26,167 nt of DNA from a virus. How positions within the stretch are numbered: position 1 is the stretch's first letter; each line of letters starts with the position of its first letter. The stretch is from positions 1 to 26,167 of the IMG/VR virus record IMGVR_UViG_3300025890_000012; one strand, written 5' to 3'. This document shows positions 533-25,311 of this stretch, in pieces. The position numbers were made by a program, and so were the translations under genes. The notes under the pieces were generated by a model. The model searched no databases. It had not been told where the DNA came from and worked only from the letters and a program-made list of their open reading frames with translations.

Positions 533-595
533 TTTGCGTGTTTATATAACCGCCAAAGATACACAGTTTTCTTCCATGTCCCAAATGCTCTCACG

Positions 596-848: not shown

Positions 849-866
849 AACTTGACAGTGTCAACC
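849..866 (+). promoter_or_regulatory. Late box copy 1: AACTTGACAGTGTCAACC
   Basis: 13-bp palindrome TTGACA-G-TGTCAA with conserved asymmetric flanks. It ends 34 nt upstream of the ATG at 901. Confidence 0.65.
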
Positions 867-900
867 TCTCCTGATCCTTCATTGGAGAGTTTTGTCCTCA

Positions 901-1341
901 ATGGATGACAGATCAAAGAAGAGACTCAAAGACACCAAAGTTGGCAAGTGGTTGAGGGAGACCTCACCCAAGGTCCTTGACCTTGTTGGTCACTTACTTC
1001 CTGACAAGGGAGTTCTTGGAGTTGTCAAGAACATGGTTGACAAAGATCCTGAGATCACACATGATCAGAAGATGGATCTGGAGAGACTCATGGAGCAGGA
1101 GAAGACCAAGAGATGGGAGTCAGACAACCAATCAGATTCATGGTTGGCCAAACACACAAGACCACTCATTGTCTTGTCACTGGTTGGTGTCCTCTTCATC
1201 TTCATCATTCTGGACTCACTGGACATTGCATTTGATGTCAGGGAGTCTTGGGTGTCACTTTATGAGGTCCTGATCTTGACTGCAGTTGGAGGATACTTCA
1301 CACTCAGATCTGTCTTTGATAAACGAAACAACAGACCATGA
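901..1341 (+). CDS. Membrane protein, possible holin-like (hydrophilic N-terminus, two C-terminal TM helices)
   Basis: ORF 892..1341 in the track starts at TTG; the first ATG is at 901. Hydrophobic stretches are PLIVLSLVGVLFIFIILDSL and WVSLYEVLILTAVGGYFTL. The stop overlaps the next start (ATGA at 1338-1341). The functional guess rests on layout only. Confidence 0.55.
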   Translation: MDDRSKKRLKDTKVGKWLRETSPKVLDLVGHLLPDKGVLGVVKNMVDKDPEITHDQKMDLERLMEQEKTKRWESDNQSDSWLAKHTRPLIVLSLVGVLFIFIILDSLDIAFDVRESWVSLYEVLILTAVGGYFTLRSVFDKRNNRP

Positions 1342-2354
1342 GTCCAAGACCTCTCTCAGTTGCATGGGCCTATGTGCAGGATCTCCTTCACAAGCACCCC
1401 AACACACCATCATTGACACTGGCAAAGAAAGTCCTCAAGGACAATCCTTCTCTCTTCACTTCAGTGGAGTCTGCAAGGACTGCAATCAGATACTTCAGAG
1501 GAGCAGTTGGGAAGAAGGCAAGGAAGAATGCAGATCCAAAATTGTCCAGACCATTCAATGAATCAATGTTCAATCCCTTTGGAATCCCTGAGACTGATGA
1601 GGTTGAATATCTTCCATTTGTATTGCCAGAGGAATGTTCAAGGATCTTGTTCCTCTCAGACATTCACATCCCCTATCACAACATCTCTGCACTGACATGT
1701 GCATTGGAGTTTGGAATTGAGAGGGATGCAAACACTATATATCTGGGAGGAGACTTCCTTGACTTCTATTCTCTGTCATCATTTGAGAGAGATCCAAGGA
1801 GAAGGAGATTCTCTGAGGAGTTGGAGACTGGAAGAGAAGTCCTCCAGATCATCAGGAGAGAGTTCCCAGATGCAAAGATCTTCTATCTCATTGGCAACCA
1901 TGAGGAGAGATATGAGAGATACATGAGGATCAAGGCACCTGAGTTGTTGGATGTGGAGGAGTTCAGGATTGACAAACTTTTGAAGTTTGATGAACTGGAC
2001 ATTGAGTTGATCAGTGGCAAGAGAGTCACAAAGGCAGGGAAGTTGAACATTGTGCACGGTCATGAATTTGGCAGAGGAGGTGCATCATCTTCAGTCAATC
2101 CTGCAAGAGGTCTCTTCAATAGGGCAAAGACATCCACCATCTGTGGACACCATCATCAAACATCAGAACACAATGAGAGGGATCTCAATGGGGACATGAT
2201 CACCACTTGGTCATCAGGTTGTCTCTGTGAACTCTCTCCAGACTACATGCCAATAAACAGATGGAATCATGGCATGGCATTCATTCAAATAGACCATCAA
2301 TCTGGTTGGTTCAAAGTAGAGAACAGACGGATCATAGATGGTGAACTAATCTAA
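1338..2354 (+). CDS. Calcineurin-like metallophosphoesterase with an N-terminal extension of about 100 aa
   Basis: All five MPE motifs occur in order: LSDIHIPYH (DxH), GGDFLDF (GDxxD), GNHEERY (GNHE), VHGHEFG (GH), CGHHHQ (GHxH). Confidence 0.85.
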   Translation: MSPRPLSVAWAYVQDLLHKHPNTPSLTLAKKVLKDNPSLFTSVESARTAIRYFRGAVGKKARKNADPKLSRPFNESMFNPFGIPETDEVEYLPFVLPEECSRILFLSDIHIPYHNISALTCALEFGIERDANTIYLGGDFLDFYSLSSFERDPRRRRFSEELETGREVLQIIRREFPDAKIFYLIGNHEERYERYMRIKAPELLDVEEFRIDKLLKFDELDIELISGKRVTKAGKLNIVHGHEFGRGGASSSVNPARGLFNRAKTSTICGHHHQTSEHNERDLNGDMITTWSSGCLCELSPDYMPINRWNHGMAFIQIDHQSGWFKVENRRIIDGELI

Positions 2355-2370
2355 AAACAAACACACAAAC

Positions 2371-2535
2371 ATGGAATCATTTTTCATTCAAAACTGGGGT
2401 GAACTCCTCATTGGTATTCTTGCATTTGCAAAGGTTGTGGTGAACATCACACCAACAGAAACGGACAACAAGATCTTTGGTTGGTTGGACAGTCTGATCA
2501 ACATGATCATCTCAGACAGACGGTCAAAAAAATAG
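2371..2535 (+). CDS. Small (54 aa) single-pass membrane protein
   Basis: Below the ORF-track size cutoff. Translated by hand: MESFFIQNWGELLIGILAFAKVVVNITPTETDNKIFGWLDSLINMIISDRRSKK. One N-terminal hydrophobic helix. Starts 16 nt after the MPE stop. Confidence 0.5.
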   Translation: MESFFIQNWGELLIGILAFAKVVVNITPTETDNKIFGWLDSLINMIISDRRSKK

Positions 2536-2714
2536 TGCTCAACTTCAGGTGTCCCACATGTGATCTGGAAAGATCAGAGAACAAGGTGACAACCAAATAT
2601 GTGGAAGGACATGGGATCTGCAATGCAGTATTCTGTGAAGAGTGTGAGGATCTGATGGTGTTGACCAATCCAAAGGAAGGTGCACCTCAACACAAGGACA
2701 CAACCCACTGGTGA
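2535..2714 (+). CDS. Small Zn-ribbon-like protein (CxxC...CxxC)
   Basis: ORF 2481..2714 in the track. A GTG at 2535 abuts the previous stop. The cysteine pairs are CPTC and CEEC. The start is uncertain. Confidence 0.4.
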   Translation: MLNFRCPTCDLERSENKVTTKYVEGHGICNAVFCEECEDLMVLTNPKEGAPQHKDTTHW

Positions 2715-2772
2715 CTCATTCCCATTTGGTCATGCCATTAGGTGAGTTCATTCACTTTTCTCTCATTGGTGA

Positions 2773-3180
2773 TCAGTTGATCAGGTAGTCCTCAAGGATC
2801 TGAACTGCATGATCATATCCCTTTGCAATGGTTGCCTTGAATCCTCTCTCTGAGAGGTCCTCCTTCCATTGTTTCTGATGTTTGGACACCACACCTCCCT
2901 TCTCCCTCTTCATCTCAATAGAGAGTCCGTGATGGACTCCTCTTGGTTCATAGATGAACACATCAGGGAATCCTCTTTTGTATCCAGTTGCTTTGATCCT
3001 TTTGGCTTCAGAGATTGATGTCCTTGCCCCTCCTGCAGATGCACACCAGAGAATGTCTGGATGTTTGTCATCAATGTATTGAGTGAAGTTCTTTTGAATT
3101 TCAAACTCACTCCCAATGCCATGTCTATTCTTGGCAGATCTTCTCTTCCTCAATCCCTTTGTGTGAAGGTTGATCCCCAT
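2773..3180 (-). CDS. VRR-NUC (PD-(D/E)xK) nuclease
   Basis: GFPDVFIYEP...LSIEMKREKGGVVSKHQKQW matches the D...ExK core and the G-x-S-x-x-Q-x-x-W tail typical of VRR-NUC. Overlaps the endolysin 3' end by 31 nt. Confidence 0.7.
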   Translation of the reverse strand: MGINLHTKGLRKRRSAKNRHGIGSEFEIQKNFTQYIDDKHPDILWCASAGGARTSISEAKRIKATGYKRGFPDVFIYEPRGVHHGLSIEMKREKGGVVSKHQKQWKEDLSERGFKATIAKGYDHAVQILEDYLIN

Positions 3181-3575
3181 TTGTCCACCACATCAAATGA
3201 TGGACATGCCTTGTTGCTGAACTCATTGTGACCATAGATGGACACTGGTCCAAAGATGTCTCTGAGTTTGTCCACCAATTCAAAGAATGCACACTCCTGC
3301 AGATCAGTCATGGTGTCTGAAGGAGATCCATCTTCAATCCCTCCCACATAGCAGATCCCAATGGTCTGATTGTGACCTCTTGTGTGGGCACCTTGTTTCC
3401 AGATCGGTCTTCCCCTCTCCACTGTTCCACATCCATCATTCAGGATGACAAAGTGGTATCCAATATCTGACCAATTTCTTGGTGGTGAGGTGTGCCACTT
3501 TCGGATTGTCTCTGTTGAGATGTCCTGACCTTTGTTTGTAGCACTGCAATGGAGAATGATCTGATTGAATTTCAT
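3150..3575 (-). CDS. N-acetylmuramoyl-L-alanine amidase endolysin (T7-lysozyme/PGRP type)
   Basis: MKFNQIILHCSAT...YGHNEFSNKACPSF carries the His/His/Cys Zn-ligand pattern of Amidase_2. The start was chosen at the ATG at 3575, which overlaps the upstream stop (ATGA). Confidence 0.85.
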   Translation of the reverse strand: MKFNQIILHCSATNKGQDISTETIRKWHTSPPRNWSDIGYHFVILNDGCGTVERGRPIWKQGAHTRGHNQTIGICYVGGIEDGSPSDTMTDLQECAFFELVDKLRDIFGPVSIYGHNEFSNKACPSFDVVDKWGSTFTQRD

Positions 3576-3751
3576 GGGAGGAGTTGTTTCAACCAGAGAC
3601 CAACTGCAAGAATGAATGCCCCAATCCCACTCCACCACTTCTTCTCCAGACCATTGATCTTCTCATCATGTTGTGCAACCATGCCAGTGACATGATCCAT
3701 CTTCTCCTCCAATCTTGCAAGGCATGTGATGATTTGATCTTGTTTGTCCAT
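3572..3751 (-). CDS. Putative holin (59 aa, coiled-coil N-terminus, one C-terminal TM helix)
   Basis: MDKQDQIITCLARLEEKMDHVTGMVAQHDEKINGLEKKWWSGIGAFILAVGLWLKQLLP. Translationally coupled to the endolysin. The start was chosen at the internal ATG at 3751, downstream of the late box. Confidence 0.5.
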   Translation of the reverse strand: MDKQDQIITCLARLEEKMDHVTGMVAQHDEKINGLEKKWWSGIGAFILAVGLWLKQLLP

Positions 3752-3787
3752 GTTGTGGTGAATATCAGTTGAGGAGTTGTTTGATCT

Positions 3788-3805
3788 GATTGACGTTGTC
3801 AAGTT
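3788..3805 (-). promoter_or_regulatory. Late box copy 2 (degenerate): minus strand AACTTGACAACGTCAATC
   Basis: Matches the consensus at 15 of 18 positions, including the AACTTGACA half. Fills the gap between the tail-fibre stop (3807) and the holin ATG (3751) and ends 36 nt upstream of that ATG. Confidence 0.5.
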
Positions 3806-3806
3806 C

Positions 3807-6800
3807 TTAGTTGGTCCAATCGTGTGTGATGTTTCCTGATCCAGTTCCAACATCTTGCAGAGTTGTCAGAGTTGTCTCCTCTCCACTGAAGGCACCAGTG
3901 TTTGACACCATGATCTTCAGATCACATGGGGCAGTTGTATTGGATGCATCAATGATGATCCTTGCAGACTCAATTGCCTTTGCACTGAAGAATTGAATCT
4001 GACACCAGTTGTCGTCTTGTTGTGACCTACCAATTCCAGATGTTGACCATCCAGTTGAGGTTGATCCATCAAAGGCAGTCCATCCTGCAGTCCCTTGAGT
4101 TGATGCATATCCATGAGATATGACAAAGTCTGACAGTCCTGAACTGTTTCCAGTGCCACTGGTTGCATTTGTAGTTGGGTTGTCTGTCCCTCCTCTGTTT
4201 GCTTCAGTGTATAAGGCAACCTCCATCACCTTGATTGGCTTGGAGATATTGTTGCCACTTGTAGTGTCAACCACTTGCATCCTCATGTACTCCCATGTTG
4301 AAGTTTGTGCAGGTGCAGTGAGATTGTCTGTCCATGCACTACTCTCAGACTTCCCTGCAGAGACTGCAGTGATTGAGAGAGTGTGTGTGTTGGTGTTTGA
4401 TGGATGTGTGAAGGTGACAACTGCACCATTCTGTGTGAAGGATGTCCCAGACAGAACTGTTGATCCATTGGATGTCAACTTCAAGACTGGAATGTATGTG
4501 GTCACTCCATCATAGTTGGTTGCAGTCCATGTGACTGTTGATCCTTGAGTTGGTGTGTCATCATCCACTGCCCCAGTTGGGGTTGTGGTTTGTGAGGTTC
4601 CTGCAGGAGGATCAATGAATGTGAATGATCCAGATCCATTTGTGCTCAATACCTGACCAGAGGTGCCATCTGCCAATTGTGAGAGAACTCCATTTGATCC
4701 CAAGACCATCAACTTTGATCCACTTGCAGGATGTGATGTCAATGATGATCCAACAAAGGTCTTCAAGGCAAGAGTGTCTGTCCCATTTGTGTCTGCCCTT
4801 GCACGGTCAATATCACTCTGATGTTCATCTGATCCTGCACCAATAGGTGCAGAGATTCCTGCAATAGGTGCAACACCTCCAAAAGTTCCTTGAGGTCCCT
4901 TTGGTACTTTGTCTTCATCTTCACTGAAGGACAATCTCTCTCTTCCAATCAACCATGCATCCACATTGTATCTGCAATCTCCTCCAATGTGGTTGAGTCT
5001 TAATGGGGCAAGATATTCCTCCACATCTGCAGAAGTTGAACAGTTGTGATGGATCACTGAGAGGATGTCAATTGGTGCATTGTATTCTGCAGTTGTCTTG
5101 ACCTGAGGAACTATGTCTCCCCTCTGCACATAGAGTGCCCTTCCCCTTTGATAGAGTTGTTCTCTGAGCATTGAGAACTGAAGATCTGTGTCTGTCTCCA
5201 GACCATCAATCTCATCTGTGATGGAGTTCCATTCTGGAGTTGAGTTGATGAAGGGTGTGACAGTAGATCCAAGATATGAAATTGTCTTCACTGCTCCATT
5301 TGATCCTGCCCCTCCAGATGCGTAGTTGCTACCAACAGTTGTTGATCCACAATCCAGATATTCAGTGTTCTCAGTCTGTTCCACAAACATGTCCCAACTG
5401 GCATCATCTGATGCACTTCCAAGGATCACTCTCAATCCATCAATTCTGTCTTCAGGTGCACTCAGATTGAATGAACCAGTGTCTGATCCAGTGTGGTCAT
5501 AATCAACAATTGCAACTGAGTCAAGGATGTTGTCAAGTTCTGGGAATGTCTGCTTGACAGTTCCATTCCTTGTCAGGACAATTCTCTCCACTCCAATTGT
5601 CACCCCATCATAGGATGAGAGGTTGTCTGGAAGAGGAAGACATGCAAATTCAAAAGCATGTTCAACATCAGTCCATTGTGTGTCATTGACTCGATATTCA
5701 AACTCACCATCCTGAGTGGCCCTGATATGAAGTCCCCCAACTCTGCTCCATCCACCACTTGACTCCACCTCTGCAGGAGGAGTTGAAGAGGTCCAAGGAA
5801 CTATGACATCAAAGAACTTCTCATTGGTTGACCATGAGGGAGTGTCCAAGAAGATTCTGTGAAAGTTGATGTTTGGATCTGTGAGGTCTCCATTGAATCC
5901 AGTTGGCATGTCAATGTGTGTGACTGCACTGTCCACACTGTACTCACTGCCATAGTAGTATGGAGTCCCTGATGCACTGTTGATCTTGATCTTGAATCTC
6001 AACAAGATCCTTGCACCAATCCGATCAGTTCCAAGATCGAATCCGTTCCCAAGAAGTGCAGATCCAAACTCTCTGACCAGATCTGTGGAGTATGTCCCAC
6101 TCAAGGTGAGGATCTCTCCTTCACTCACAACAAGGTCTTGATTGCCAAATGTCACAACACCACTTCCATTGTTGGGATAGTCAAGATAGAAGTTCCTTGG
6201 AGGTCCCAAGACTGATCTTGTTCCTGCATCTTCAAATGTCAAGGTGCACCTCTTGATGGGGAGGAGATAGGAGTTGGACCATCCAATTCCAAGTGCATGA
6301 TCTGCATCAATGTCATGTCTGAAGTTCACGTCTTGATAGGTTGACGTGTCACCATTGACAATGCCTCCAACAAGTTGTGTCTGTATTGTCTCAGAAGAGA
6401 CTTGTGACCTGAACCAACTTTGGACTCTCAATGTGTGACTCCAGTTGAGTGCATTGGCAGGGAAGAACCAGAATGAAGATCTTGCCATTGTGATCCTTGC
6501 CCCAAATGCATTTGCAATGTTCTCAAGGACATTCTTGCAGGAGTTGAAGTTTGGAGGTTGTTTGATCCTCCTTCCATATTCATCCTCATCAACGTCTCCT
6601 CCATCACTAAAGGTCAAAGAATTGACCACTGTCCTCTCAATGACTGAGATGGGGAACGCATCCCCTTCTGATGATGCAAAGGATGAGTATGTCCCAGAAA
6701 AATGATCTTTACTGAAACAATCCACCACTTCCCTCATCTGAAAGTCTGAGTTGGACCAGAAGGTTGCAGTTGGGATCTTATTGATGCAACGTGCAAAGAC

Positions 6801-7328
6801 CTCTGCAATGGAGGCATCATCCGTGTAAACTGAACCACTATTCCTGAACTCAACATTGGACAAACGGTTCAGACCACAATTGGCAACCAGTGTGACCATG
6901 TATGGTCTGTCTTGTGTCTCATAGACTATTGCCTCATGATTGAGACACCCCACCCAATAGGGAGACCAGTGTGTCCCTCCATTGTCATAGTAGAGTGCAA
7001 TTCCAAGTCTGGCATCATTGGCACCCTTGATCACTGACTTCAAGTTCTCCATCTGGGAAGTGTTCACAATCCATGTGACCTCACAAGATGAAGGAATGAT
7101 TGATCCTCCAACATGATCTGTTGGTCCATCCCAACTGAGATTGAATCCATCAGATGTCAGTTCAGTGTCAAGGATTGTGGATGATGAGATCCCAAAACCA
7201 GTGTGACCACTGGCAGTGTCTGAGTCAATCAATTCAACTCTCCAGTGTCTGCCTCTGGCATCATAGAACTCTGATTTATATCTGGCCCTCCAATTGCCTG
7301 TGCTCGTATTTACTGCTTGTGTTGGCAT
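3807..7328 (-). CDS. Tail-tip / tail-fibre (host-recognition) protein, 1173 aa, C-terminal discoidin-like carbohydrate-binding domain
   Basis: Lies immediately downstream of the tape measure gene. Has a Ser/Thr/Gly-rich fibre-like middle region (GTSGQVLSTNGSGSF). The C-terminus ...GWTAFDGSTSTGWSTSG...DNWCQIQFFSAKAIESARII... resembles F5/8 type C domains (from memory). Confidence 0.7.
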   Translation of the reverse strand: MPTQAVNTSTGNWRARYKSEFYDARGRHWRVELIDSDTASGHTGFGISSSTILDTELTSDGFNLSWDGPTDHVGGSIIPSSCEVTWIVNTSQMENLKSVIKGANDARLGIALYYDNGGTHWSPYWVGCLNHEAIVYETQDRPYMVTLVANCGLNRLSNVEFRNSGSVYTDDASIAEVFARCINKIPTATFWSNSDFQMREVVDCFSKDHFSGTYSSFASSEGDAFPISVIERTVVNSLTFSDGGDVDEDEYGRRIKQPPNFNSCKNVLENIANAFGARITMARSSFWFFPANALNWSHTLRVQSWFRSQVSSETIQTQLVGGIVNGDTSTYQDVNFRHDIDADHALGIGWSNSYLLPIKRCTLTFEDAGTRSVLGPPRNFYLDYPNNGSGVVTFGNQDLVVSEGEILTLSGTYSTDLVREFGSALLGNGFDLGTDRIGARILLRFKIKINSASGTPYYYGSEYSVDSAVTHIDMPTGFNGDLTDPNINFHRIFLDTPSWSTNEKFFDVIVPWTSSTPPAEVESSGGWSRVGGLHIRATQDGEFEYRVNDTQWTDVEHAFEFACLPLPDNLSSYDGVTIGVERIVLTRNGTVKQTFPELDNILDSVAIVDYDHTGSDTGSFNLSAPEDRIDGLRVILGSASDDASWDMFVEQTENTEYLDCGSTTVGSNYASGGAGSNGAVKTISYLGSTVTPFINSTPEWNSITDEIDGLETDTDLQFSMLREQLYQRGRALYVQRGDIVPQVKTTAEYNAPIDILSVIHHNCSTSADVEEYLAPLRLNHIGGDCRYNVDAWLIGRERLSFSEDEDKVPKGPQGTFGGVAPIAGISAPIGAGSDEHQSDIDRARADTNGTDTLALKTFVGSSLTSHPASGSKLMVLGSNGVLSQLADGTSGQVLSTNGSGSFTFIDPPAGTSQTTTPTGAVDDDTPTQGSTVTWTATNYDGVTTYIPVLKLTSNGSTVLSGTSFTQNGAVVTFTHPSNTNTHTLSITAVSAGKSESSAWTDNLTAPAQTSTWEYMRMQVVDTTSGNNISKPIKVMEVALYTEANRGGTDNPTTNATSGTGNSSGLSDFVISHGYASTQGTAGWTAFDGSTSTGWSTSGIGRSQQDDNWCQIQFFSAKAIESARIIIDASNTTAPCDLKIMVSNTGAFSGEETTLTTLQDVGTGSGNITHDWTN

Positions 7329-7331
7329 GTT

Positions 7332-10097: not shown

Positions 10098-10767
10098 GAG
10101 GCAATGGAGTTGATTTGTTCTTCAGTTATTTCATTCTGTTCACTGTTTTCATCTTCATCCTTGTATGGATTGAAGTCTTGGGGTGAATAGGGAGTGGGTT
10201 TCCTCTTGGGATCTCTGTTGGCATTGGCAATCAAAGACATGACTGTGGAGGTGTGGTTCCACAAGATCTTGTCCTTGTTGACCAGACTCCTTGAATAGGA
10301 TGCCAGTTCAAAGAATGTCAAAGACCAGAACTGATCAGGGAGGATTCCCATCTCAAGTCCGTGCCCATATAGATCTGACCAAGTGCGAAGTGACGAGGGA
10401 GAGGAGGAGTCATGATCTCCCCTCCCTCTTGTCAGTTTCCCTCCTTACTTCCCCCAGTTGATCCCATTGAGTGTCCCACTGCCTCTGAAAGTTCTTGGAA
10501 CTTCTCAAGGTCACTGCAAATGATTGCAGACATGTGATCATAGTTGATCTCAGGTCTTGGTTGACCTTTGATGTCTTGGGCATTCATGATGCCCCAGAAG
10601 ATCACAGTTGGAACAAAGTCAAGTGGATCAGAATTGACAAACTCATCAAGAGCAGACAGTTCCATCTTCTTGTCTTTGCATAGCAATCTGAAACAATTGA
10701 GATTCAGGAGAACCTCATGTGTGTCCTTTCCCAATTCAATGGAGATCTGTCCTCTGAGTTCGTTCAT
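10070..10767 (-). CDS. Tail assembly chaperone frameshift product (gpGT-like, about 232 aa, -1 shift at 10435-10441)
   Basis: The -1 frame is open from just upstream of the slippery site through ORF 10070..10351. That ORF carries a ...FWSLTFFELASY...WNHTS...ANANRDPKRKP... chaperone-like sequence. Confidence 0.75.
10395..10441 (-). promoter_or_regulatory. Programmed -1 ribosomal frameshift signal: slippery GGGAAAC plus a downstream hairpin
   Basis: Minus strand: GGGAAAC (10441-10435), 6-nt spacer tgacaa containing the zero-frame TGA, then GAGGGAGGGGAG / 7-nt loop / CTCCTC-ctc-TCCCTC. This gives 12 bp, including one G-U pair, with a 3-nt bulge. Confidence 0.8.
10432..10767 (-). CDS. Tail assembly chaperone (gpG-like)
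   Basis: 111-aa ORF between the major tail and tape measure genes. Ends in the slippery heptamer G GGA AAC followed by TGA. Confidence 0.8.
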   Translation of the reverse strand: MNELRGQISIELGKDTHEVLLNLNCFRLLCKDKKMELSALDEFVNSDPLDFVPTVIFWGIMNAQDIKGQPRPEINYDHMSAIICSDLEKFQELSEAVGHSMGSTGGSKEGN

Positions 10768-10777
10768 ATTCTATGTA

Positions 10778-11209
10778 TTAAGCGAAGTTTCCAGTTGTCA
10801 ATCCTGAGCAGTCAAATGACACAGAGAATGAAGTTGAGTCATTCAATGGTGCAGTCTCCTCAAATGAGGTGATGTATGCAGTGACTTGTGCAAACGGATC
10901 TCCAGTGACTCCTGATCCATAGCGGAGTGTCAATTGTGTTTTGTCTTTTGCAGATGCGAACAGATGAGTCCTTCCAACATTGTTGTATGCAGTCAGACCA
11001 TCAATTGTGATGGACACAGACTGTTGTCCAGGAAGGACAGACCGTGCTCCATCATTGTCCTTGCAGACAGTTTCAATCATTTCATTTGTCAGATTGAGTG
11101 AGGCGTTTGTGCCACATGCGATCAGATCGTAGTTTGTATCTCCAGATGCATCTGCATCAAGAATGTAAACTCCAACCAAGTTGCCTTTGACGGTTCCAGT
11201 AGTTGCCAT
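10778..11209 (-). CDS. Major tail protein (143 aa)
   Basis: Position upstream of the chaperones. A small beta-rich protein, MATTGTVKGNLVGVYILDAD..., typical of TP901-1/phi13-type major tail proteins. Confidence 0.75.
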   Translation of the reverse strand: MATTGTVKGNLVGVYILDADASGDTNYDLIACGTNASLNLTNEMIETVCKDNDGARSVLPGQQSVSITIDGLTAYNNVGRTHLFASAKDKTQLTLRYGSGVTGDPFAQVTAYITSFEETAPLNDSTSFSVSFDCSGLTTGNFA

Positions 11210-11212
11210 TTT

Positions 11213-11479
11213 TTAAGTTTTTAAGGGGGTTGTTTTTTTACGTTTCACCTTCTTCTTTGGAGGTGAGATCTTCTCCTTCTCTTCATCACACTTCTCACAA
11301 GGTTCATCATGCTCCTTGCAGGGGCATTCATGAGTGGGAGGAGGATTGGTGACAGAAGGATGATGAATTGCAAAACCATTTGAGATCAGTTTGTGGACCA
11401 CTTTTGTGTCTTCAATCAGAACAGTGTGACCAACAATCCATGACTTCCCTTCAACGGGTGCAATAATTTCCAATTTCAT
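11213..11479 (-). CDS. Hypothetical small protein with a Cys cluster and a Lys-rich C-terminal tail
   Basis: 88-aa ORF with ECPCKEHDEPCEKC and a ...PPKKKVKRKKTTPLKT tail. Starts 32 nt downstream of late box copy 3. Confidence 0.55.
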   Translation of the reverse strand: MKLEIIAPVEGKSWIVGHTVLIEDTKVVHKLISNGFAIHHPSVTNPPPTHECPCKEHDEPCEKCDEEKEKISPPKKKVKRKKTTPLKT

Positions 11480-11511
11480 GCCTCAAAAATCCACCACTTG
11501 AGATGGGATGA

Positions 11512-11529
11512 GGTTGACAGTGTCAAGTT
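11512..11529 (-). promoter_or_regulatory. Late box copy 3: minus strand AACTTGACACTGTCAACC
   Basis: Lies in the 51-nt gap between ORFs 11531..11938 and 11213..11479. Ends 32 nt upstream of the ATG at 11479. Confidence 0.65.
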
Positions 11530-11530
11530 C

Positions 11531-11938
11531 CTATGTGTGTGCAGACTGTCCAGTCCTTGTTGTGGTCAGAATGAATGTGGAGACTGTGACAAACGTCTCA
11601 TCCTCAGGATCAATTCCAACCTCCAGATCTTCAAACCTGATGTCAACATGAAAATGGTTGACAGATCCAACATATTTGTCCAATTCATTCCTCACTGCCA
11701 TTGCAATGTCATAGGAGTTCTTTGGATTGGTTGAGTATGCACTGATCTGGATTGTGATGAAGTCAATGAATGATGAGTGACTCTTGGTCTCTTGTGGTTC
11801 AAAGTTTGTCAGATCCACCACAATGCAGGGGAGTCCAGTTGACTGTCTCCTTTGGATTGCATGGATGTCTGATGATCCACTCAGGAATGACATCACTCCA
11901 GTGGATGCCTCCAATATGTCAATGACTTCTCCAATCAT
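11531..11938 (-). CDS. Tail completion/terminator-like protein
   Basis: 135 aa. It is the last gene of the head-tail joining set before the tail tube genes. ATGA overlap with the upstream gene. Confidence 0.6.
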   Translation of the reverse strand: MIGEVIDILEASTGVMSFLSGSSDIHAIQRRQSTGLPCIVVDLTNFEPQETKSHSSFIDFITIQISAYSTNPKNSYDIAMAVRNELDKYVGSVNHFHVDIRFEDLEVGIDPEDETFVTVSTFILTTTRTGQSAHT

Positions 11939-12411
11939 GCTTCAACTATTTTCTTGATGTGTTTGCCAATTCTGTTCTCTGCATCCTTGGACTTTGTTTG
12001 GAATGATTTGTCAATGAATCCAGATCCTTTGACTCCTCTTCTGGTGATGGACTTGACCTTGATCCTCCCTCCACCTTTGGTGAAGAATGAGAACATCCCA
12101 CTGCCCTTGGCAGTGTAGGTCCCACCTCTTGATCCCAGTTCTTGGATGTGTGCATATGGTGCACCTCCCTTCCCTCCTTTGGGACCAATGAGAACATTCT
12201 CTCCCAGATCCCTTCTCTTCTTCCCTCGTCTTGTCACAATAGACTTCTGGAGTGTTCCAGTCTTCTTTGGTGCAAGTCTCTTCATCTCCTTCTTGATTGG
12301 AGGTGCCCCCTTCCTGAGGATCTTCACTGCCTCCTTCCTGCCCAACTTCTCCTCAAGTTTCTTGAGTCTTTGTGACAGTCTCTCTGTTCCTTCAATCTTT
12401 ACGTCTGCCAT
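11935..12411 (-). CDS. HK97 gp10-like head-tail joining protein
   Basis: MADVKIEGTERLSQRLKKLEE...APKKTGTLQKSIV matches the gp10-family N-terminal pattern. Synteny supports the call. Confidence 0.65.
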   Translation of the reverse strand: MADVKIEGTERLSQRLKKLEEKLGRKEAVKILRKGAPPIKKEMKRLAPKKTGTLQKSIVTRRGKKRRDLGENVLIGPKGGKGGAPYAHIQELGSRGGTYTAKGSGMFSFFTKGGGRIKVKSITRRGVKGSGFIDKSFQTKSKDAENRIGKHIKKIVEA

Positions 12412-12734
12412 CAGGAGTTGTCTCTGACAGTGGTGATCAATCTCAGTGCCTCATTCCTTCCGATCACTTCAATGGAATGAACATCATGCAAGAGGTCACC
12501 ATATTTGATGACAGTGTCTCTGGTTGTGATCCCACTTTGGTGTCTGATCACAAACTCAATCTTGTCCACTCCAACCTTCTGATCAGAGGATTGTTCTTCC
12601 CCTCCTCCTTTGTAGATTATTTGTGCCCAGAATGTCCCAACAAGGGACTTGGACTTCACCTCATGGTTCCATGAGTCAGTTGATCCAGTCCAGTTGTAGA
12701 TGGCAATTCTTTTGTCCAGTTTCCCAATGTTCAT
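12411..12734 (-). CDS. Head-tail adaptor / head closure protein
   Basis: 107 aa starting MNIGKLDKRIAIYNWT..., the typical head-closure start. Lies between the connector and the gp10-like protein, with overlapping stop/start codons on both sides. Confidence 0.65.
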   Translation of the reverse strand: MNIGKLDKRIAIYNWTGSTDSWNHEVKSKSLVGTFWAQIIYKGGGEEQSSDQKVGVDKIEFVIRHQSGITTRDTVIKYGDLLHDVHSIEVIGRNEALRLITTVRDNS

Positions 12735-13294
12735 CTGAATGATTTGAGTCTGTATGGTTCCATCAAATACTTGGATGCCATTGGGATCTCATGGTGTTTG
12801 AATCTCCCAACATCTTGTCTGTTCTCATATAGATGACCAATGATCAGGAGCATGGCACTCACAAGTGCCTGAGGTCTGTCATCTGTGTCATATCCAGAGA
12901 TTGTCTGGACAGTCACTGCATTGAGTTGATCCTTGACATCATTGGGGATCTTCATCATCCTCAACCTTGATGGATAGCTTTTGCCATCCAATTGATAGTC
13001 TGCAAGTGCTGAGACAGTTGTCCCAGAGTGTGCATTGATATAGGTCAGACCTGAGATTGTCAGATCTGTTCCTCCATGAAGATCCATGAAGTCCATGAAG
13101 GTGTCTGAATAGAAGTTCACTCCAGTCCTCTGCATGAAGTCTCCAGTGTACTTCTGCACCACATCTTGAGATGCAGTGATCAAGGATGTGATCAAGGCAT
13201 CATCACCTGAATGTTCAACTCTCAAGTGTGTTTTAGCAACTGCCAAACTGATGACATTGATTGCATCTGGGAATGTTGTTTGTTCAAGTTTCAT
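12731..13294 (-). CDS. gp6-like head-tail connector protein
   Basis: ...AKTHLRVEHSGDDALITSLITASQDVVQKYTG... is the characteristic connector N-terminal motif. It is the first gene after the capsid gene. Confidence 0.65.
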   Translation of the reverse strand: MKLEQTTFPDAINVISLAVAKTHLRVEHSGDDALITSLITASQDVVQKYTGDFMQRTGVNFYSDTFMDFMDLHGGTDLTISGLTYINAHSGTTVSALADYQLDGKSYPSRLRMMKIPNDVKDQLNAVTVQTISGYDTDDRPQALVSAMLLIIGHLYENRQDVGRFKHHEIPMASKYLMEPYRLKSFR

Positions 13295-13314
13295 GTGATG
13301 AGATTGTGAAAAGT

Positions 13315-13337
13315 GGGGACACCCAAATGATGTCCCC
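13315..13337 (-). terminator. Hairpin after the major capsid gene (possible attenuator/partial terminator)
   Basis: GGGGACA (13315-13321) / TGTCCCC (13331-13337) with a 9-nt loop. On the minus strand it is followed by aCTTTTCac, a short T tract. Lies in the 65-nt gap after the capsid stop. Confidence 0.45.
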
Positions 13338-13359
13338 CTTCTCAGTTTAGTTCAACAGT

Positions 13360-14691
13360 TTAGACTGTTGTTGGGGTTGTTGCAATAGTCATTCCACCCA
13401 GAGTCTGGACAGATCCTGAACGTCTCACATTTCCATTTGCATACATGTTTGCAATCAGACGGATTGTCCCCTGATGTGCAAGAGTGTAACTGTCCACAGT
13501 CACATCCAGTCCACCAAACTTTGCAATGAATAGATCAGAAGGATCAACAAAGTAAATTGGGCGAATTGAGATGGTGTCATCTGCATCTGTGATCCCTGAT
13601 GCATAAGCATCTGCAACCACTGTCTTGGCACCAACATTTGTTGATGAGAAGACCTGATACCCAAGGATCTCATTCCCAACATTGGCAATTGCTCCTCCTG
13701 CTGACTGAGACACTCCTTTGAGATATGCACTCATTGTTGGATCCATCAACATTGCAAGGTTTGCACCTGCAGGATCATTTGACAAGAATGCACCTTCATG
13801 TGCAGTTAGATCTGCATAAGTTGTTGCACTGTATGATGTGCCTGACACCACACTGTGATTGGTGATGTTCCCAACTCCAAACAGATTTGTGTTGATCACA
13901 TACTTGTCCAACTCGTTTCCAAGTGCAACAGACATGTCACGTGCAATCACCGCATCAAGTGCAGGATCAGACTGGTTCAACATTTGACGTGTGAGATCCA
14001 TCCGCATTGTGAAACGCTTGGGATCAAGAGTCACAGATCCAAAGTCTCCATCAAGATTGGCAACGTCACCAATCTCTGCAACTTGTGATCCTGCTCCATT
14101 TGGTAATGAAGGGAGAACAAGGTTTCCAGATGCTTGGATCACTGTTGCCCCCATACGCTCAAGGACTGAGGTTGCTCGAAGGCCCTCAACCATTCCTGCA
14201 TGTTCAACACCTCGGACTTTGTTTCCTTGGTTCTGACCATTGGTGTCATCAACAGAATAGGACTCATTTGCACGTTCCTCACCGTTCATCAAGAATGATG
14301 GGATGGTGATGTTTCCACGAGCAGATGCCCCAGTTGCATTCAATTCATTTCGGCCTTCTTGGACCATCTCTGCCTCCAGTCCTTCCAGACCTCCCTTGTT
14401 GACCAGATCAGAGATTGCTTTGGTCATTGAGAACTTGCCCCTCAATTGAGTTTGCTCCTTCTCTTCAGACTTTGATGATGCAATTCCTGCACCTGCAGTG
14501 AACATTGCCTCATTGCTTTTGGCACGTTTGATCTCTGTGTCAAGATCTGCCACTTCAGAGTGGATTGCATCTTGACGTGTGTTCTCCTCTTCTGAGAAGT
14601 CACGTTCTTCTGTGGCAACAGAATTGAGGAGAGTTTCCAACTCCTCAACCAATGCACCACGTTCCTCCAATAGTTTGTTGGAATTTTTCAT
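13360..14691 (-). CDS. Major capsid protein, HK97 fold family
   Basis: Follows the prohead protease with an ATGA overlap. The N-terminus is a coiled-coil, delta-domain-like segment (MKNSNKLLEERGALVEELETLLNS...). The start was chosen at the ATG at 14691 rather than the track start at 14736. Confidence 0.85.
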   Translation of the reverse strand: MKNSNKLLEERGALVEELETLLNSVATEERDFSEEENTRQDAIHSEVADLDTEIKRAKSNEAMFTAGAGIASSKSEEKEQTQLRGKFSMTKAISDLVNKGGLEGLEAEMVQEGRNELNATGASARGNITIPSFLMNGEERANESYSVDDTNGQNQGNKVRGVEHAGMVEGLRATSVLERMGATVIQASGNLVLPSLPNGAGSQVAEIGDVANLDGDFGSVTLDPKRFTMRMDLTRQMLNQSDPALDAVIARDMSVALGNELDKYVINTNLFGVGNITNHSVVSGTSYSATTYADLTAHEGAFLSNDPAGANLAMLMDPTMSAYLKGVSQSAGGAIANVGNEILGYQVFSSTNVGAKTVVADAYASGITDADDTISIRPIYFVDPSDLFIAKFGGLDVTVDSYTLAHQGTIRLIANMYANGNVRRSGSVQTLGGMTIATTPTTV

Positions 14692-15305
14692 GTTGTTGTT
14701 TTGAGTTTTGCGAGTTGGAGCATAGACTGTCCCCACTTCAGACGGTCTCTTGTTTGCTCAGTCTCCTCGACTTGATTTGTATTTGTTGTTTTTGGTAGTG
14801 GGGGTGTTGGCAATGATCTTGCAGTCACTTCTGTTGTTTGATAGGCAGGATATGTGACCACGCTCAGATCTATGAGATTGCCAAGTCTGGTGATGTGTCG
14901 ATGTGGTTTGCCATCCCTCTCTTCCCATTGATCTTCCTCAACCGTGAATGCAAAGGATGCCTGATCCACATCTCCTCTCAAGAGGGATGAGTGCAGGTCT
15001 TGTGCATAGGATTGTGGTCCAACTGGGAAGGAGAAGTGAACACCTCTCTCATCAATTTTCATGTCCAATGTCCCCTGACCGTCTTTGGACCGTGCAAGGG
15101 GATAGTTCTCATTATGGTTGAATAGCATTCTGACATCATCATTCATCACATTGGTGAATGAATCTGGATCAATACTCTCTGTAAATTTTCCAAGATCAGT
15201 GTCCTCATTGAAGACCACTGCATATCCTTCCACTCTCTGCTCATCTTGAGTCTCTGGAGTGTCAGATCTGGATTGGATTGTTGTTTGGATGAATCGTCTT
15301 TCCAT
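14688..15305 (-). CDS. HK97-family prohead protease
   Basis: ...VEGYAVVFNE...VRMLFNHNENYPLA...ASFAF... matches the S78/U35 protease pattern. Lies between portal and capsid. Confidence 0.8.
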   Translation of the reverse strand: MERRFIQTTIQSRSDTPETQDEQRVEGYAVVFNEDTDLGKFTESIDPDSFTNVMNDDVRMLFNHNENYPLARSKDGQGTLDMKIDERGVHFSFPVGPQSYAQDLHSSLLRGDVDQASFAFTVEEDQWEERDGKPHRHITRLGNLIDLSVVTYPAYQTTEVTARSLPTPPLPKTTNTNQVEETEQTRDRLKWGQSMLQLAKLKTTT

Positions 15306-15316
15306 GTGTTTAGTGT

Positions 15317-16567
15317 TTAAGTGTTTGACTCCTCCTCCTTCTGAGTGAGTTTGTCTCCATAGGCAGATGCAGAGTCCAATGGGATCTGATTGACTTGGAT
15401 GAGATGGACATCTCCTGATGGACCAATTCCATTGAGATCCTCCATCTTCCTGACCTCATTCACTGACATGAATCCATGTTGGAGTGCAGATGCATAGAAC
15501 TCACGTCTGGAGTCCAGATCTCCTCTGAGAAGAGACCTCATGTCAAACTTTGTCTTGTATTGTCCACGCTCCCTCTCTGGGATCAGTTTTCTGTCCAGTT
15601 CCATCTCCAACTTCCTTGCCCAAGGAATGAGAGTCTGTTGGGTGAATGCAATCAGGATCTGTTCAACATTGTTGTATGTGGTTGATCCTTCTGCCTGAAT
15701 GAGAACTGGATTGACATTGAAGATCCTTGCAACCTCCTCCACTTGGAACTTCCTTGTGAGGATGAATTGGGCCTGATCTGGAGGGATCGTTGATCTCTCA
15801 TATTTGAGACCATGTTCAAGGATTGCAGTCTCATGGGCGTTTGAGATTCCTTGATGTTGGTTCCCCCATGTACTCTTGAGTCTGTGATATTGATCATCTG
15901 TGAGTGACTTGTCAGTCATCAGGAATCCTCCAGTGTTCCCTCCAGTTCCAAAGAACCTTGCACCATATTCCATTGATGCAGATGTGATCCCCAGATTCTC
16001 CATGTGGAGTCTGATTGGTGACTTCCCTCTGAATGCCTCAAGGATGACCAGATCATCAGGATAGTAGATTGCACCTGACTCTGTGTCTCTGAAGATCTTC
16101 TGTCCATCATAGACATCAGACTTGATCACTGATGGATCAAGTGGATGCAGTGCAGATGGTCTTGATGTGATCTCTCCACGCTCAATGAATGAATATGCAC
16201 AACCATACATGAGTGCATCTGAGATCATCCTCTCAATGAAGGAGAATGAGTTGTCAGTTTCGTTTGGTTCTGAGTTGATCAGAACAAAGGCAGGATGTTC
16301 CTTGGCAAGTCTCTTCCCATCCACTGTGTCCTCATATAAGTTGAGAGGAAGGGATGCAAGAGTTGAAGAGATCTTGGAGATTGATGCATAAACTGCAGAG
16401 AGTGACAGGGCACCTTCTTCATTCATACTCACTCCAGACTTTGTGGTCCTGCCAAAGATCCCCATGAAGGGAGAAGTGACATTGACAGACCGTTCCTCTT
16501 GTTGAGGTTTTTTGTTGTTTCTGTTCCTGAATACCTTCAGGAAGTCCAGTTCAAGGGAGAATCTCAT
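15317..16567 (-). CDS. Portal protein (HK97 family)
   Basis: Size and position after TerL. The first ATG is at 16567; the track start at 16615 is a TTG inside the late box. Confidence 0.85.
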   Translation of the reverse strand: MRFSLELDFLKVFRNRNNKKPQQEERSVNVTSPFMGIFGRTTKSGVSMNEEGALSLSAVYASISKISSTLASLPLNLYEDTVDGKRLAKEHPAFVLINSEPNETDNSFSFIERMISDALMYGCAYSFIERGEITSRPSALHPLDPSVIKSDVYDGQKIFRDTESGAIYYPDDLVILEAFRGKSPIRLHMENLGITSASMEYGARFFGTGGNTGGFLMTDKSLTDDQYHRLKSTWGNQHQGISNAHETAILEHGLKYERSTIPPDQAQFILTRKFQVEEVARIFNVNPVLIQAEGSTTYNNVEQILIAFTQQTLIPWARKLEMELDRKLIPERERGQYKTKFDMRSLLRGDLDSRREFYASALQHGFMSVNEVRKMEDLNGIGPSGDVHLIQVNQIPLDSASAYGDKLTQKEEESNT

Positions 16568-16600
16568 TGGCACGAAATTCACCAACCTATGTCTCAGAGG

Positions 16601-16618
16601 GGTTGACAGTGTCAAGTT
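16601..16618 (-). promoter_or_regulatory. Late box copy 4: minus strand AACTTGACACTGTCAACC
   Basis: Identical 18-mer to copy 3. Ends 33 nt upstream of the portal ATG at 16567. Confidence 0.65.
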
Positions 16619-16866
16619 TATAGATCAGACCTTCTCTTGGTGTTCCATCTACTCAAAACAGAGGCAAAGTTCTCATGTCCATTGTATCTGGTCCTCCCAA
16701 ACAAACTCATGTGATCCTCTTCAACACTCCAGTATGTGTCACCATTGGAGTCATGTTGAGGGAGTCTCTCAAAGTATTCTTCAATGAATCCTTCTCTTGT
16801 TGAGATCTTGGGTGCCAGATCAAGGAGTCTGATCAGTTTTTGGGGATTGTTTGGATTGTAGGTCAA
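16618..16866 (-). CDS. Hypothetical protein (82 aa, TTG start overlapping the TerL stop)
   Basis: It is the only ORF filling the TerL-portal gap. No ATG start is available and no motif was recognised. Confidence 0.4.
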   Translation of the reverse strand: MTYNPNNPQKLIRLLDLAPKISTREGFIEEYFERLPQHDSNGDTYWSVEEDHMSLFGRTRYNGHENFASVLSRWNTKRRSDL

Positions 16867-19733: not shown

Positions 19734-19772
19734 TGGATGCAATTTCGGACATTTTACTCTGAAATTTGCTCA

Positions 19773-19787
19773 ATGTCTGAAACGTGG
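19773..19787. repeat. 15-bp direct repeat ATGTCTGAAACGTGG, copy 1
   Basis: Exact second copy at 19974-19988, 201 bp away. Both lie in the 19743-19995 non-coding region. Confidence 0.8.
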
Positions 19788-19803
19788 GGAGAAGTCTTTG
19801 TGT

Positions 19804-19813
19804 GGGTGCAAAT
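19804..19813 (-). promoter_or_regulatory. Promoter-like box ATTTGCACCC (minus strand) upstream of the HNH-terminase block
   Basis: The same 10-mer occurs at 21523-21532 (minus), and ATTTGCTCCC occurs at 21638-21647 (plus). The box contains a TTTG core like the Bacteroidota -7 element TAnnTTTG. Confidence 0.4.
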
Positions 19814-19870
19814 GGTAGAGAATATCCACCTGACTGGGGAGAACTGATCTCTGCATGTTCCATGACCTCT

Positions 19871-19888
19871 GTGCCCCCAATGGGGCAC
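19871..19888. other. GC-rich hairpin GTGCCCC-caat-GGGGCAC
   Basis: Perfect 7-bp stem with a 4-nt loop. No flanking T run on either strand. Confidence 0.6.
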
Positions 19889-19906
19889 TCAGGGAAGTTC
19901 CTTGGT

Positions 19907-19921
19907 CAAGGATGATCCTTG
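19907..19921. repeat. 15-bp perfect palindrome CAAGGAT-G-ATCCTTG
   Basis: Read directly. Lies in the same non-coding region. Confidence 0.6.
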
Positions 19922-19973
19922 GGTTCCTGAGAAGCAGGGCGAAGTTCGGTCTCACCTAAATACCAAACAAGAG

Positions 19974-19988
19974 ATGTCTGAAACGTGG
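19974..19988. repeat. 15-bp direct repeat ATGTCTGAAACGTGG, copy 2
   Basis: Identical to 19773-19787. On the minus strand it starts 8 nt after the stop of the 502-aa ORF. Confidence 0.8.
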
Positions 19989-19995
19989 TTGAAAC

Positions 19996-21522: not shown

Positions 21523-21532
21523 GGGTGCAAAT
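21523..21532 (-). promoter_or_regulatory. Promoter-like box ATTTGCACCC (minus strand) for the 502-aa gene
   Basis: CAtaTTTGCACCC lies 18 nt upstream of the ATG at 21504. A TTTG lies 17 nt further upstream, inside repeat R1. Confidence 0.4.
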
Positions 21533-21534
21533 AT

Positions 21535-21557
21535 GGTGGAAAACCTCCCTCAAAACA
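21535..21557. promoter_or_regulatory. Switch-region direct repeat R1 (GTGGAAAAC-n4-CTCAAAACA). The minus strand contains TTTTCCACC, a DnaA-box-like 9-mer
   Basis: Shares the 9-mers GTGGAAAAC and CTCAAAACA with R2, 51 bp away. Lies between divergent genes. Confidence 0.5.
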
Positions 21558-21585
21558 AGTCAGATTCACAACTTCGGGGATATTG

Positions 21586-21634: not shown

Positions 21635-21647
21635 TAGATTTGCTCCC
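21635..21647 (+). promoter_or_regulatory. Promoter-like box TAGATTTGCTCCC for the early plus-strand operon
   Basis: TAGATTTG is an exact fit to the Bacteroidota -7 consensus TAnnTTTG. It is 9/10 identical to the ATTTGCACCC boxes and lies 74 nt upstream of the ATG at 21717. Confidence 0.45.
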
Positions 21648-25040: not shown

Positions 25041-25311
25041 TTGGATTGATGACATCTTTGAGGAGTTGGAGGATCGGGTGCCTGAGGGCATCCGTTTCCG
25101 TTTGGATGAACTTCTGGATCAGATCTACATTGAAGATGAGAGAGACTTCCTGCATCTTCTACAAAGGATCTACTCTCCTGATCTAACCTCTCAGGGAGTC
25201 ACAGATCTGTTCAGGGAACTCAATGACAGAAGAGTCCCAGTGAGGGATCAATATGCCCCAAGACAGAAGGATCTTGCAGAGTGGATCAGGTCCTTCTGCT
25301 TCACAGATTGA
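25024..25311 (+). CDS. Hypothetical acidic protein (95 aa)
   Basis: The ATG at 25024 is preceded by gaggATG. The 3' end overlaps the convergent int stop by 11 nt. Confidence 0.5.
   Translation: MSTDPDWIDDIFEELEDRVPEGIRFRLDELLDQIYIEDERDFLHLLQRIYSPDLTSQGVTDLFRELNDRRVPVRDQYAPRQKDLAEWIRSFCFTD

Follow-up and report, generated by a model that had tools for sequence, protein, structure and literature searches.

Which signals switch on the structural and lysis genes of a temperate phage that infects Bacteroidota? The question is raised by IMG/VR record IMGVR_UViG_3300025890_000012, which was analysed over its whole length of 26,167 nucleotides (nt), called the window here, and in which an 18-mer palindromic box, AACTTGACASTGTCAACC, recurs ahead of four gene units. 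The RNA polymerase of Bacteroidota uses unusual promoters, and translation in this phylum mostly proceeds without a Shine-Dalgarno lead. To our knowledge, phage transcription control in Bacteroidota is almost unexplored outside the crAss-like phages, and in the searchable literature we found no description of the motif or of the late promoters of temperate Bacteroidota siphoviruses. We report that the box is joined at a fixed distance to a second conserved element next to the start codon, and that it probably forms the upstream part of promoters of a phage-specific class, which would depend on an activator and be read by the host RNA polymerase.

We scanned the whole window for the box in order to establish its copies. 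The 18-mer occurs three times without mismatch and once with three mismatches (15 of 18 positions), and no further match at up to three mismatches is present in the window, within coding sequence or outside it, where dinucleotide-preserving shuffles give 0.14 expected. The pattern AAC-TTGAC-N3-GTCAA has four exact copies against 0.04 expected, with no fifth in the window even when one mismatch is allowed. All four boxes are intergenic, point in the direction of the downstream gene and, where a gene precedes them, abut its stop codon; copy 1 adjoins the phage attachment site (attP) and lacks a co-directional upstream gene. The boxes end 34 (849), 36 (3788), 32 (11512) and 33 nt (16601) from the ATG. 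A truncated box, TTGACACTGT, lies at 743-752, and the scan found no box ahead of the early genes or the terminase operon. On the copies, their intergenic position and orientation, the distances, the truncated copy and the freedom of coding sequence from full copies, the original prediction, made from the letters of the window, was accurate. It had also recorded a TTTTG or TTTCG tract before the ATG at three of the four sites, which we confirm and recognize as part of an element resembling the -7 element of Bacteroidota promoters. The four sites, with open reading frame (ORF) products named by their length in amino acids (aa), are as follows.

849-866, plus strand: box copy 1, AACTTGACAGTGTCAACC, exact, upstream of the holin-like/metallophosphoesterase cassette.
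867-886, plus strand: variable 20-nt spacer of copy 1, whose CTCTCC...GGAGAG self-complementarity extends into the adjoining elements.
887-894, plus strand: -7-like element of copy 1, GAGTTTTG, final G 6 nt before the ATG at 901.
3788-3805, minus strand: box copy 2, AACTTGACAACGTCAATC, upstream of the holin-amidase-VRR-NUC genes.
3759-3766, minus strand: -7-like element of copy 2, GATATTCA, in a degenerate module with a 21-nt spacer and 7 nt to the ATG at 3751.
11512-11529, minus strand: box copy 3, exact, ahead of the genes for the 88-aa protein and the major tail protein; homologous tail sites number 19 (non-redundant).
11484-11491, minus strand: -7-like element of copy 3, GATTTTTG, final G 4 nt before the ATG at 11479.
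16601-16618, minus strand: box copy 4, exact, ahead of the portal gene, with its first base in overlap with the stop codon of an 82-aa ORF.
16573-16580, minus strand: -7-like element of copy 4, GAATTTCG, final G 5 nt before the ATG at 16567; GAATTTYG is invariant in alignment A1.

To follow the module through related phages, two sets of relatives were assembled without reference to the box: five fetched by the portal protein alone (76-84% aa identity; alignment A1), and near-complete relatives reached through homologues of the 502-aa protein (30-42% identity). All five portal-fetched relatives have a box before the portal gene, and A1 shows AAACTTGACA..GTCAAC and GAATTTYG without variation, separated by about 20 nt that diverge, and then nnnCA and the ATG. 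The relatives fetched by the 502-aa protein carry the box at the portal gene throughout, L249 also at the tail gene and the cassette, and L253 also at the lysis genes and the cassette. The syntenic placement that the original prediction had proposed to look for was thus found at the same four positions. Scanning IMG/VR and metagenome contigs for the pattern yielded 46 distinct portal- and tail-type copies, 38 of them non-redundant, on contigs from related, uncultured marine phages. Across the family, the portal position is occupied in all relatives, the tail position in L001, L003, L011 and L249 among others, the lysis position in L253 (a perfect 18-mer), L011 and L153, and the cassette position in L153/L224/L244/L246, L249 and L253.

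The consensus of the module reads R-AAC-TTGAC-N3-GTCAA-C(C/G), 20 variable nt, GAnTTTYG, 4-5 nt, and ATG or GTG. The spacer is exactly 20 nt long in 38/38 non-redundant portal and tail copies, and the downstream element, G38-A39-n-T41-T42-T43-Y44-G45, is nearly fixed (G38 in 37/38, A39 in 38/38, T41-T43 in 38/38 each, G45 in 37/38). In the portal and tail copies, G45 is followed after 4-5 nt by the start codon, which is ATG, or GTG at several tail sites. The R-AAC flank at the 5' end of the box is invariant and asymmetric. Box position 10 is T in CG-poor genomes of the window type and C in CG-rich sister lineages; the 6-1-6 palindrome described in the original prediction is therefore a lineage effect. 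It holds in the CpG-depleted lineage of the window and fails across relatives, where the symmetric core is the 5-3-5 TTGAC-N3-GTCAA.

The portal site shows why a promoter is needed there. Several relatives have opposite-strand genes inserted between the 82-aa gene and the portal box, at the following places among others.

L064, 9206-9730, minus strand: opposite-strand insertion in the interval between the 82-aa gene and the portal box.
L053, 3518-4542, minus strand: opposite-strand insertion in the same interval.
L251, 10245-11153, minus strand: opposite-strand insertion in the same interval.

L064 and L253 have an 80-aa gene, a terminator-like hairpin with a T run (in L064 the end of the upstream operon), an opposite-strand gene for a secreted protein, and then the box and the portal gene. 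Three opposite-strand genes separate the 82-aa gene from the portal box in L251 and L252, and three do so in L053, a contig of the L005 type; in L229 an opposite-strand gene starts just upstream of the box. These genes bar read-through from the terminase genes while the module stays intact, indicating that the portal box region itself must be a promoter. Taken at the sequence level, synteny, the fixed 20-nt spacing and the opposite-strand upstream genes support the proposal of the original prediction that the box is a late promoter or activator site that divides the late genes into sub-operons and includes the plus-strand cassette. As side observations, the products of the inserted genes inspected in L064 and L053 have signal-peptide-like N-termini, and in two of the three insertion lineages the reverse complement of the left flank of the box reads CAAGTTTG, a -7-like element for the divergent gene.

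Since the split of the integrase ORF by the window ends (1-503 and 25301-26167, minus strand) marks it as circularly permuted, the window is a complete genome, that of a temperate HK97-like siphovirus of 26,167 base pairs (bp) with an HNH-TerS-TerL-portal module. The minus strand carries, in order, the genes for the 502-aa protein, HNH, a 94-aa protein, TerS, TerL, the 82-aa ORF, portal, protease, capsid, connectors, the 88-aa protein and the major tail protein, followed by tape measure, a 1173-aa tail protein, holin, amidase and VRR-NUC; the plus strand carries the early replication module and the holin-like/metallophosphoesterase cassette. GenBank phages include no near-identical DNA and no close relative, and the portal protein is present on a marine metagenome contig in ENA. 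On sequence grounds the host is a member of the Bacteroidota. The integrase domain is Phage_int_SAM_5, and the stretches ahead of most genes are rich in A and lack a Shine-Dalgarno sequence. L229 is a host-type contig with prophage remnants of the window's phage family, a portal-type box among them. It encodes a protein with Por_Secre_tail, the sorting domain of type IX secretion, as well as DUF4920 and Reg_prop, and it shows the same transfer RNA (tRNA) end as the attP core twice.

In Flavobacterium johnsoniae the -7 element reads T-12 A-11 H H T-8 T-7 T-6 G-5, lies 4-5 nt from the transcription start, and is followed by leaders of more than 10 nt in 87% of transcripts (PMC6847099). The window and L064 contain promoters of this canonical kind.

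21528-21558, minus strand: P_L, the canonical Bacteroidota early promoter TTG-N20-CATATTTG, before the 502-aa gene.
21635-21642, plus strand: P_R, TAGATTTG, of the rightward early operon.
554-561, minus strand: P_int, TATCTTTG, of the integrase gene.
L064, inserted opposite-strand gene: promoter element TAGCTTTG.

These four match the published Bacteroidota consensus; P_L, kept as TTG-N20-(T/C)AnATTTG in four relatives (alignment A4), is the standard with which the box module is compared. The string TAnnTTTG by itself is not enriched in the window (4 copies, 5.3 expected), though the few that exist lie in regulatory gaps. Set beside the housekeeping promoter of the phylum (-33 TTTG/-7 TAnnTTTG, sigma ABfr), the box-linked element keeps A-11 (38/38), T-8 and T-7 (38/38), T or C at -6 and G-5 (37/38), and the predicted distance of 4-5 nt to the transcription start is the one published for F. 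johnsoniae. It differs in having G at the near-invariant T-12 place (G in 37/38, T in 0/38) and in lacking the -33 TTG: no TTG or TTTG lies about 19-21 nt upstream of the box-linked element, and the place is held by AAC(C/G), the 3' end of the box. Unlike the F. johnsoniae leaders, moreover, the start codon of the box module falls at the predicted start.

These comparisons suggest how the module would work. GAnTTTYG would be a weakened form of the phylum's -7 element, with G replacing T at -12; by the 4-5 nt rule of F. johnsoniae, transcription would then start at the start codon or 1-2 nt off it and give leaderless or near-leaderless messenger RNAs (mRNAs). The box would extend from about -50 to -33 and replace the -33 TTG. 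A dimeric phage-encoded DNA-binding protein would occupy the dyad, with the asymmetric AAC flank setting the orientation, and would recruit or activate RNA polymerase in a class II-like manner. Four units would in this way be switched on together: portal to tail terminator, the 88-aa gene to the tail fibre, holin-amidase-VRR-NUC, and the holin-like/phosphoesterase cassette. The dyad centre is at module position 9 (zero-based) and the start codon at 50-51, which puts the centre at -41/-42, conditional on the predicted transcription start; given that start, the box has the class II layout, a dyad site near -41.5 that replaces the upstream element. That the module is a promoter appears very likely to us. 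We consider it fairly likely that box-linked transcripts are leaderless, and on balance, by a narrower judgement, we favour activation by a phage-encoded dimer in the class II fashion. What the sequences show is the motif with its geometry and conservation, the host phylum, the contrast with the canonical early promoters and the need for a promoter at the portal site; where transcription starts, that the box activates and does not repress, that its units are late and which protein reads it are inferred.

Two proteins stand out as candidate readers of the box: a four-helix 82-aa protein, and a 502-aa protein with an invariant helix-turn-helix-like segment.

16618-16866, minus strand: 82-aa ORF in the interval from TerL to the portal box; only its position makes it a candidate activator.
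19996-21504, minus strand: 502-aa protein, transcribed from P_L, the canonical leftward promoter; a candidate regulator or repressor.

The 82-aa protein is 68-88% identical across relatives, as conserved as the structural genes, and restricted to the window's phage group; its model is four-helical with a predicted local distance difference test (pLDDT) score of 85, and it has no match in the PDB and matches only uncharacterised viral proteins. A weak homologue, gp08, lies between TerL and portal in Cellulophaga phage phi39:1, a phage without the box. The gene caller missed this ORF on the source contig; its homologues start with ATG, GTG or TTG, the window copy with TTG. The 502-aa protein has 15 homologues only, 30-47% identical overall and none with Pfam domains. 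Its N-terminal domain is modelled at pLDDT of about 85-94 and contains helices 73-80 and 84-91, with R84, Q85, W87, N89 and V90 invariant; matches of the model to XRE-type folds are weak, all with E > 1, and no PDB match is significant. From its cI-like position, the 502-aa protein is equally a candidate repressor. A third protein, with an HTH_17 domain, resembles the PDB chains 6AMA/6AMK, deposited as 'putative DNA-binding protein', and other PDB sequence searches were negative. These chains we take to be BldC, a binder of direct repeats, which makes the HTH_17 protein a less likely reader of a dyad. Scans with Pfam, PHROGs and NCBIfam agree with the original prediction, in which no obvious late activator or sigma factor was annotated: no sigma, Mor/C, RinA or polymerase domain was found in the scanned ORFs, which include all uncharacterised ones.

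Several observations weigh against the activator-dependent promoter. The same three databases give no activator domain in the candidate proteins. The transcription start is extrapolated from another species, F. johnsoniae, and the 8 bp between the half-site centres are a tight fit for a classical helix-turn-helix dimer. The operator of a repressor would be just as plausible an identity for a palindrome at -50 to -33. The register is not kept everywhere: G-5 lies 6-8 nt before the start codon at cassette sites (8 nt before the ATG in L249 and L253), and the lysis site of the window is off-register (21 + 8 + 7 nt), its -7-like element being poor and its start codon 7 nt past the last base of the degenerate element. 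Strict leaderless translation sits uneasily with cassette sites of the L153 type, where the start-codon position holds TTG. Among the pattern-scan copies, part of the box's invariance reflects the way they were retrieved. Finally, the spacers tend to be self-complementary and to run into a T tract (27 non-redundant copies, mean z = -1.5 relative to plain shuffling of the spacer).

A rather unlikely alternative is that the box is the operator of a dimeric phage repressor, such as the 502-aa protein, which would bind over the -33 region and silence otherwise constitutive late promoters in the lysogen. The site is dyad-symmetric and overlaps the -33 position, and the 502-aa gene, divergent from the early operon, has the cI-like position already mentioned; its putative recognition helix, RQTWNNV, is invariant among homologues of 30-47% identity, paralleling the invariance of the box, and there are the weak XRE-type fold matches. 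Those matches all have E > 1, however, and promoters without a -33 TTG and with T avoided at -12 in 38/38 copies are expected to be weak unaided. Moreover, a lysogeny repressor must act in the early P_L/P_R region, which contains no box.

Distinctly unlikely in our estimate is an element that acts at the RNA level, in which a box hairpin, UUGAC-NNN-GUCAA, together with the spacer hairpin and U run would form an intercistronic terminator, attenuator or processing site, read by an RNA-binding antiterminator or a nuclease, with the downstream genes expressed by read-through. The better-than-shuffled folding of the spacers speaks for it, as do the different stems found in different phages (ATCCCA/TGGGAT, ATCCCG/CGGGAT, CTCTCC/GGAGAG, CCTCCT/AGGGGG), each followed by TTTT(G), and a terminator scan flags 11491-11506 on the minus strand. 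In many spacers a 5' part rich in C and T can pair with a G-rich 3' part in short stems that end at the T run, and the spacer of copy 1 folds at -10.1 kcal/mol (z = -4.25 against a spacer shuffle). The signal falls, however, to z = -0.9 when the halves are shuffled separately and to -0.5 when they are swapped between members (Wilcoxon p = 0.049), both of which keep positional composition. A single conserved RNA structure in the spacer was rejected, as the stem register shifts between members and the stricter nulls leave a marginal signal. The total length is nonetheless fixed at 20 nt, and the box stem never covaries. The stems have 4-6 bp and 3-5 T, compared with 10 bp and T7 in the genuine terminator at 643-668, and an Rfam search gave no match. 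The lysis sites and the portal site of the window lack the hairpin, which elsewhere is present whatever the orientation of the upstream gene, and the module is kept where that gene is on the opposite strand, so that no transcript is there to be terminated or read through. The hairpin, which is at odds with a reading of the box purely at the RNA level, could act as a leaky terminator or insulator and its T run also supply the TTT of the -7 element. The promoter model holds without it, and we treat it as a secondary, unexplained feature.

We consider it very unlikely that the box and the G-12 -7 element are read as one promoter by a phage sigma-like factor, a sigma-remodelling factor or a novel polymerase. 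G at -12 is positively conserved (37/38) rather than merely degenerate, the terminase-operon promoter described below also combines GAnnTTTG and a nearly adjacent start codon with another upstream motif, which suggests a common altered core recognition, and conserved phage proteins without assigned function exist, such as the acidic 94-aa, the 209-aa and the 502-aa proteins. Yet no scanned ORF has a sigma-70 region 2/4 or a polymerase domain, the genome is just 26 kb, and the 21-29 nt from box to -7-like element, depending on the half-site, are too long for the usual span of a single sigma factor.

An ordinary sigma-70 promoter with TTGACA as its -35 hexamer has next to no probability: the hexamer is a perfect consensus, and the unrelated IMG/VR phage contigs L019, L028, L056, L089 and L100 have textbook sigma-70 promoters made up of the 17-mer pattern AACTTGACAnnGTCAAC, 8 nt and TATAAT, but TTGACA is not such a hexamer here because the host is of the Bacteroidota, no conserved -10 hexamer lies 16-18 nt past it, a consensus scan reports none of the four sites, the conserved downstream element is 29 nt past it, and the phages' own early promoters are of the TTG-N20-TAnnTTTG type. 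The occurrence of the 17-mer pattern in those contigs also means that the box sequence alone is not diagnostic of the window's phage family. Two further candidates were rejected: a promoter of a T7-like RNA polymerase, given the lack of a polymerase domain in the scanned ORFs and of a significant PDB match for the 502-aa model, and a Bacteroidota SOS box (non-canonical LexA), as TTGAC-N3-GTCAA matches neither published motif, GGA-N5-TCC or CTAA-N5-TTAG (PMC8565304).

The activator-dependent promoter class invites comparison with known systems. In function it would come closest to phage Mu, which has four late promoters activated by protein C, and to class II promoters, among them lambda PRM and those dependent on FNR. 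The four Mu late promoters are Plys, PI, PP and Pmom (PMC4461284). At these promoters a dyad activator site replaces a poor or absent upstream hexamer, morphogenesis and lysis operons are switched on together, and the gene of the activator immediately precedes the first of them. The window likewise has four probable promoters with a common dyad site, and the position of its 82-aa ORF parallels that of the Mu activator gene, whereas no Mor/C-family match was found in the window ORFs scanned (Pfam, PHROGs, NCBIfam), the polymerase would be of the Bacteroidota type with a -7 element, the site has another sequence with 5-3-5 spacing, and the transcripts are predicted to be leaderless. With class II promoters (CRP or FNR at -41.5, lambda cI at PRM near -42) the box would share a predicted dyad centre at -41/-42, a weakened core promoter, and a position that overlaps or replaces the upstream element beside the place of sigma region 4. 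It differs in that its geometry rests on a predicted transcription start, its half-sites are 8 bp apart rather than 10-12, its AAC flank is asymmetric, and no protein of the CRP/FNR or cI type is demonstrated for it. Because no homologous activator was found, membership in the Mu C or class II promoter families is unsupported. RinA, ArpU and Alt are late activators of temperate siphoviruses of Gram-positive bacteria. Like the phages that they serve, the one in the window is temperate, HK97-like and equipped with an HNH-TerS-TerL-portal module, and it would have a late switch of its own (PMC3152322). RinA, ArpU and Alt work from one promoter, ahead of terS, whereas the terminase operon here has no box and four internal or distal units have one; no RinA- or ArpU-like domain was found in the window ORFs scanned.

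The box-less terminase operon, HNH-TerS-TerL, is preceded by a 250-nt gap after the 502-aa gene (19739-19995, minus strand), which is a conserved regulatory region (alignment A3) with the following features.

19974-19988 and 19773-19787, minus strand: two copies of CCACGTTTCAGACAT in the gap between the 502-aa and HNH genes.
19739-19746, minus strand: G-12 -7-like element GAAATTGC, 5 nt before the HNH ATG at 19733.

In A3 the HNH start codon lies 3-5 nt past GATCTTTG, GATTTTTG or GAAATTGC; further upstream are a conserved CCCACGTT ... GCAAAT(A/T)TCA, a second CACGTT copy, an invariant CGAACTTCG (four relatives) and a covarying GC hairpin. The gap thus appears to hold a second, box-less promoter class. 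A G-12, start-codon-adjacent core common to two promoter classes with different upstream motifs would suggest a cascade. We put forward only tentatively, and with considerable doubt, a two-tier phage-specified programme on the Bacteroidota RNA polymerase, with a core class defined by G-12, no -33 element and the start codon at the transcription start, hence leaderless mRNAs; CACGTT...GCAAAT would drive the terminase operon, and the box, read by an undescribed family of transcription factors for which the 82-aa and 502-aa proteins are candidates, would drive the structural, lysis and cassette genes. In L255, a cultured flavobacterial phage (Cellulophaga phage phi39:1; 4398-4415), the portal gene has a canonical TAAATTTG that ends 1 nt before the annotated TTG start, with a GTG 6 nt past the element. 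Start-codon-adjacent portal promoters may be more general in flavobacterial siphoviruses.

Beyond the late genes, the attP core beside copy 1 consists of a tRNA 3' end (GGGGTTCAAATCCCCTACGGGCTAC) followed by a strong terminator with a 10-bp stem; the attP region covers 643-723 on the minus strand, 510-530, and 751-795 on the plus strand. A tRNA scan of the window found none, the tRNA-like stretch being an attP fragment. Five repeats of TGTGGGCCA(T/A)T in the same orientation flank the core, and relatives have other repeats at the same places (ACGGCACAC in L244, ACGACACTCA in L253), so the repeats probably serve as arm sites for the integrase or as iterons. A canonical -7 element, TATCTTTG, at 840-847 on the minus strand abuts box copy 1 and points to attP, and a protein bound to the box would cover its spacer; the element is not kept in L249 or L253. 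The base composition of the window is also unusual. CCGG, CGCG, GCGC and CTAG are absent (68-100 expected each), AGCT occurs twice, TCGA, TTAA and GTAC are at 0.10-0.14 of expectation, and GATC and TGCA are over-represented 3.5-fold and 3.2-fold. Observed-to-expected ratios are 0.12 for CG, 0.21 for TA and 0.55 for GC in the window; in the sister lineages (L003/L004/L005, L251), CG is at about 1.25 and TA still at about 0.2-0.36. The avoidance of short palindromes looks like a strong restriction-avoidance or methylation-linked bias.

For this widespread group of marine temperate phages, the module provides a concrete late-promoter architecture and marks operon boundaries that are hidden from gene callers. 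It predicts leaderless late mRNAs, gives a DNA bait for a probably new activator, and could serve as a tightly regulated promoter part in flavobacterial genetics.

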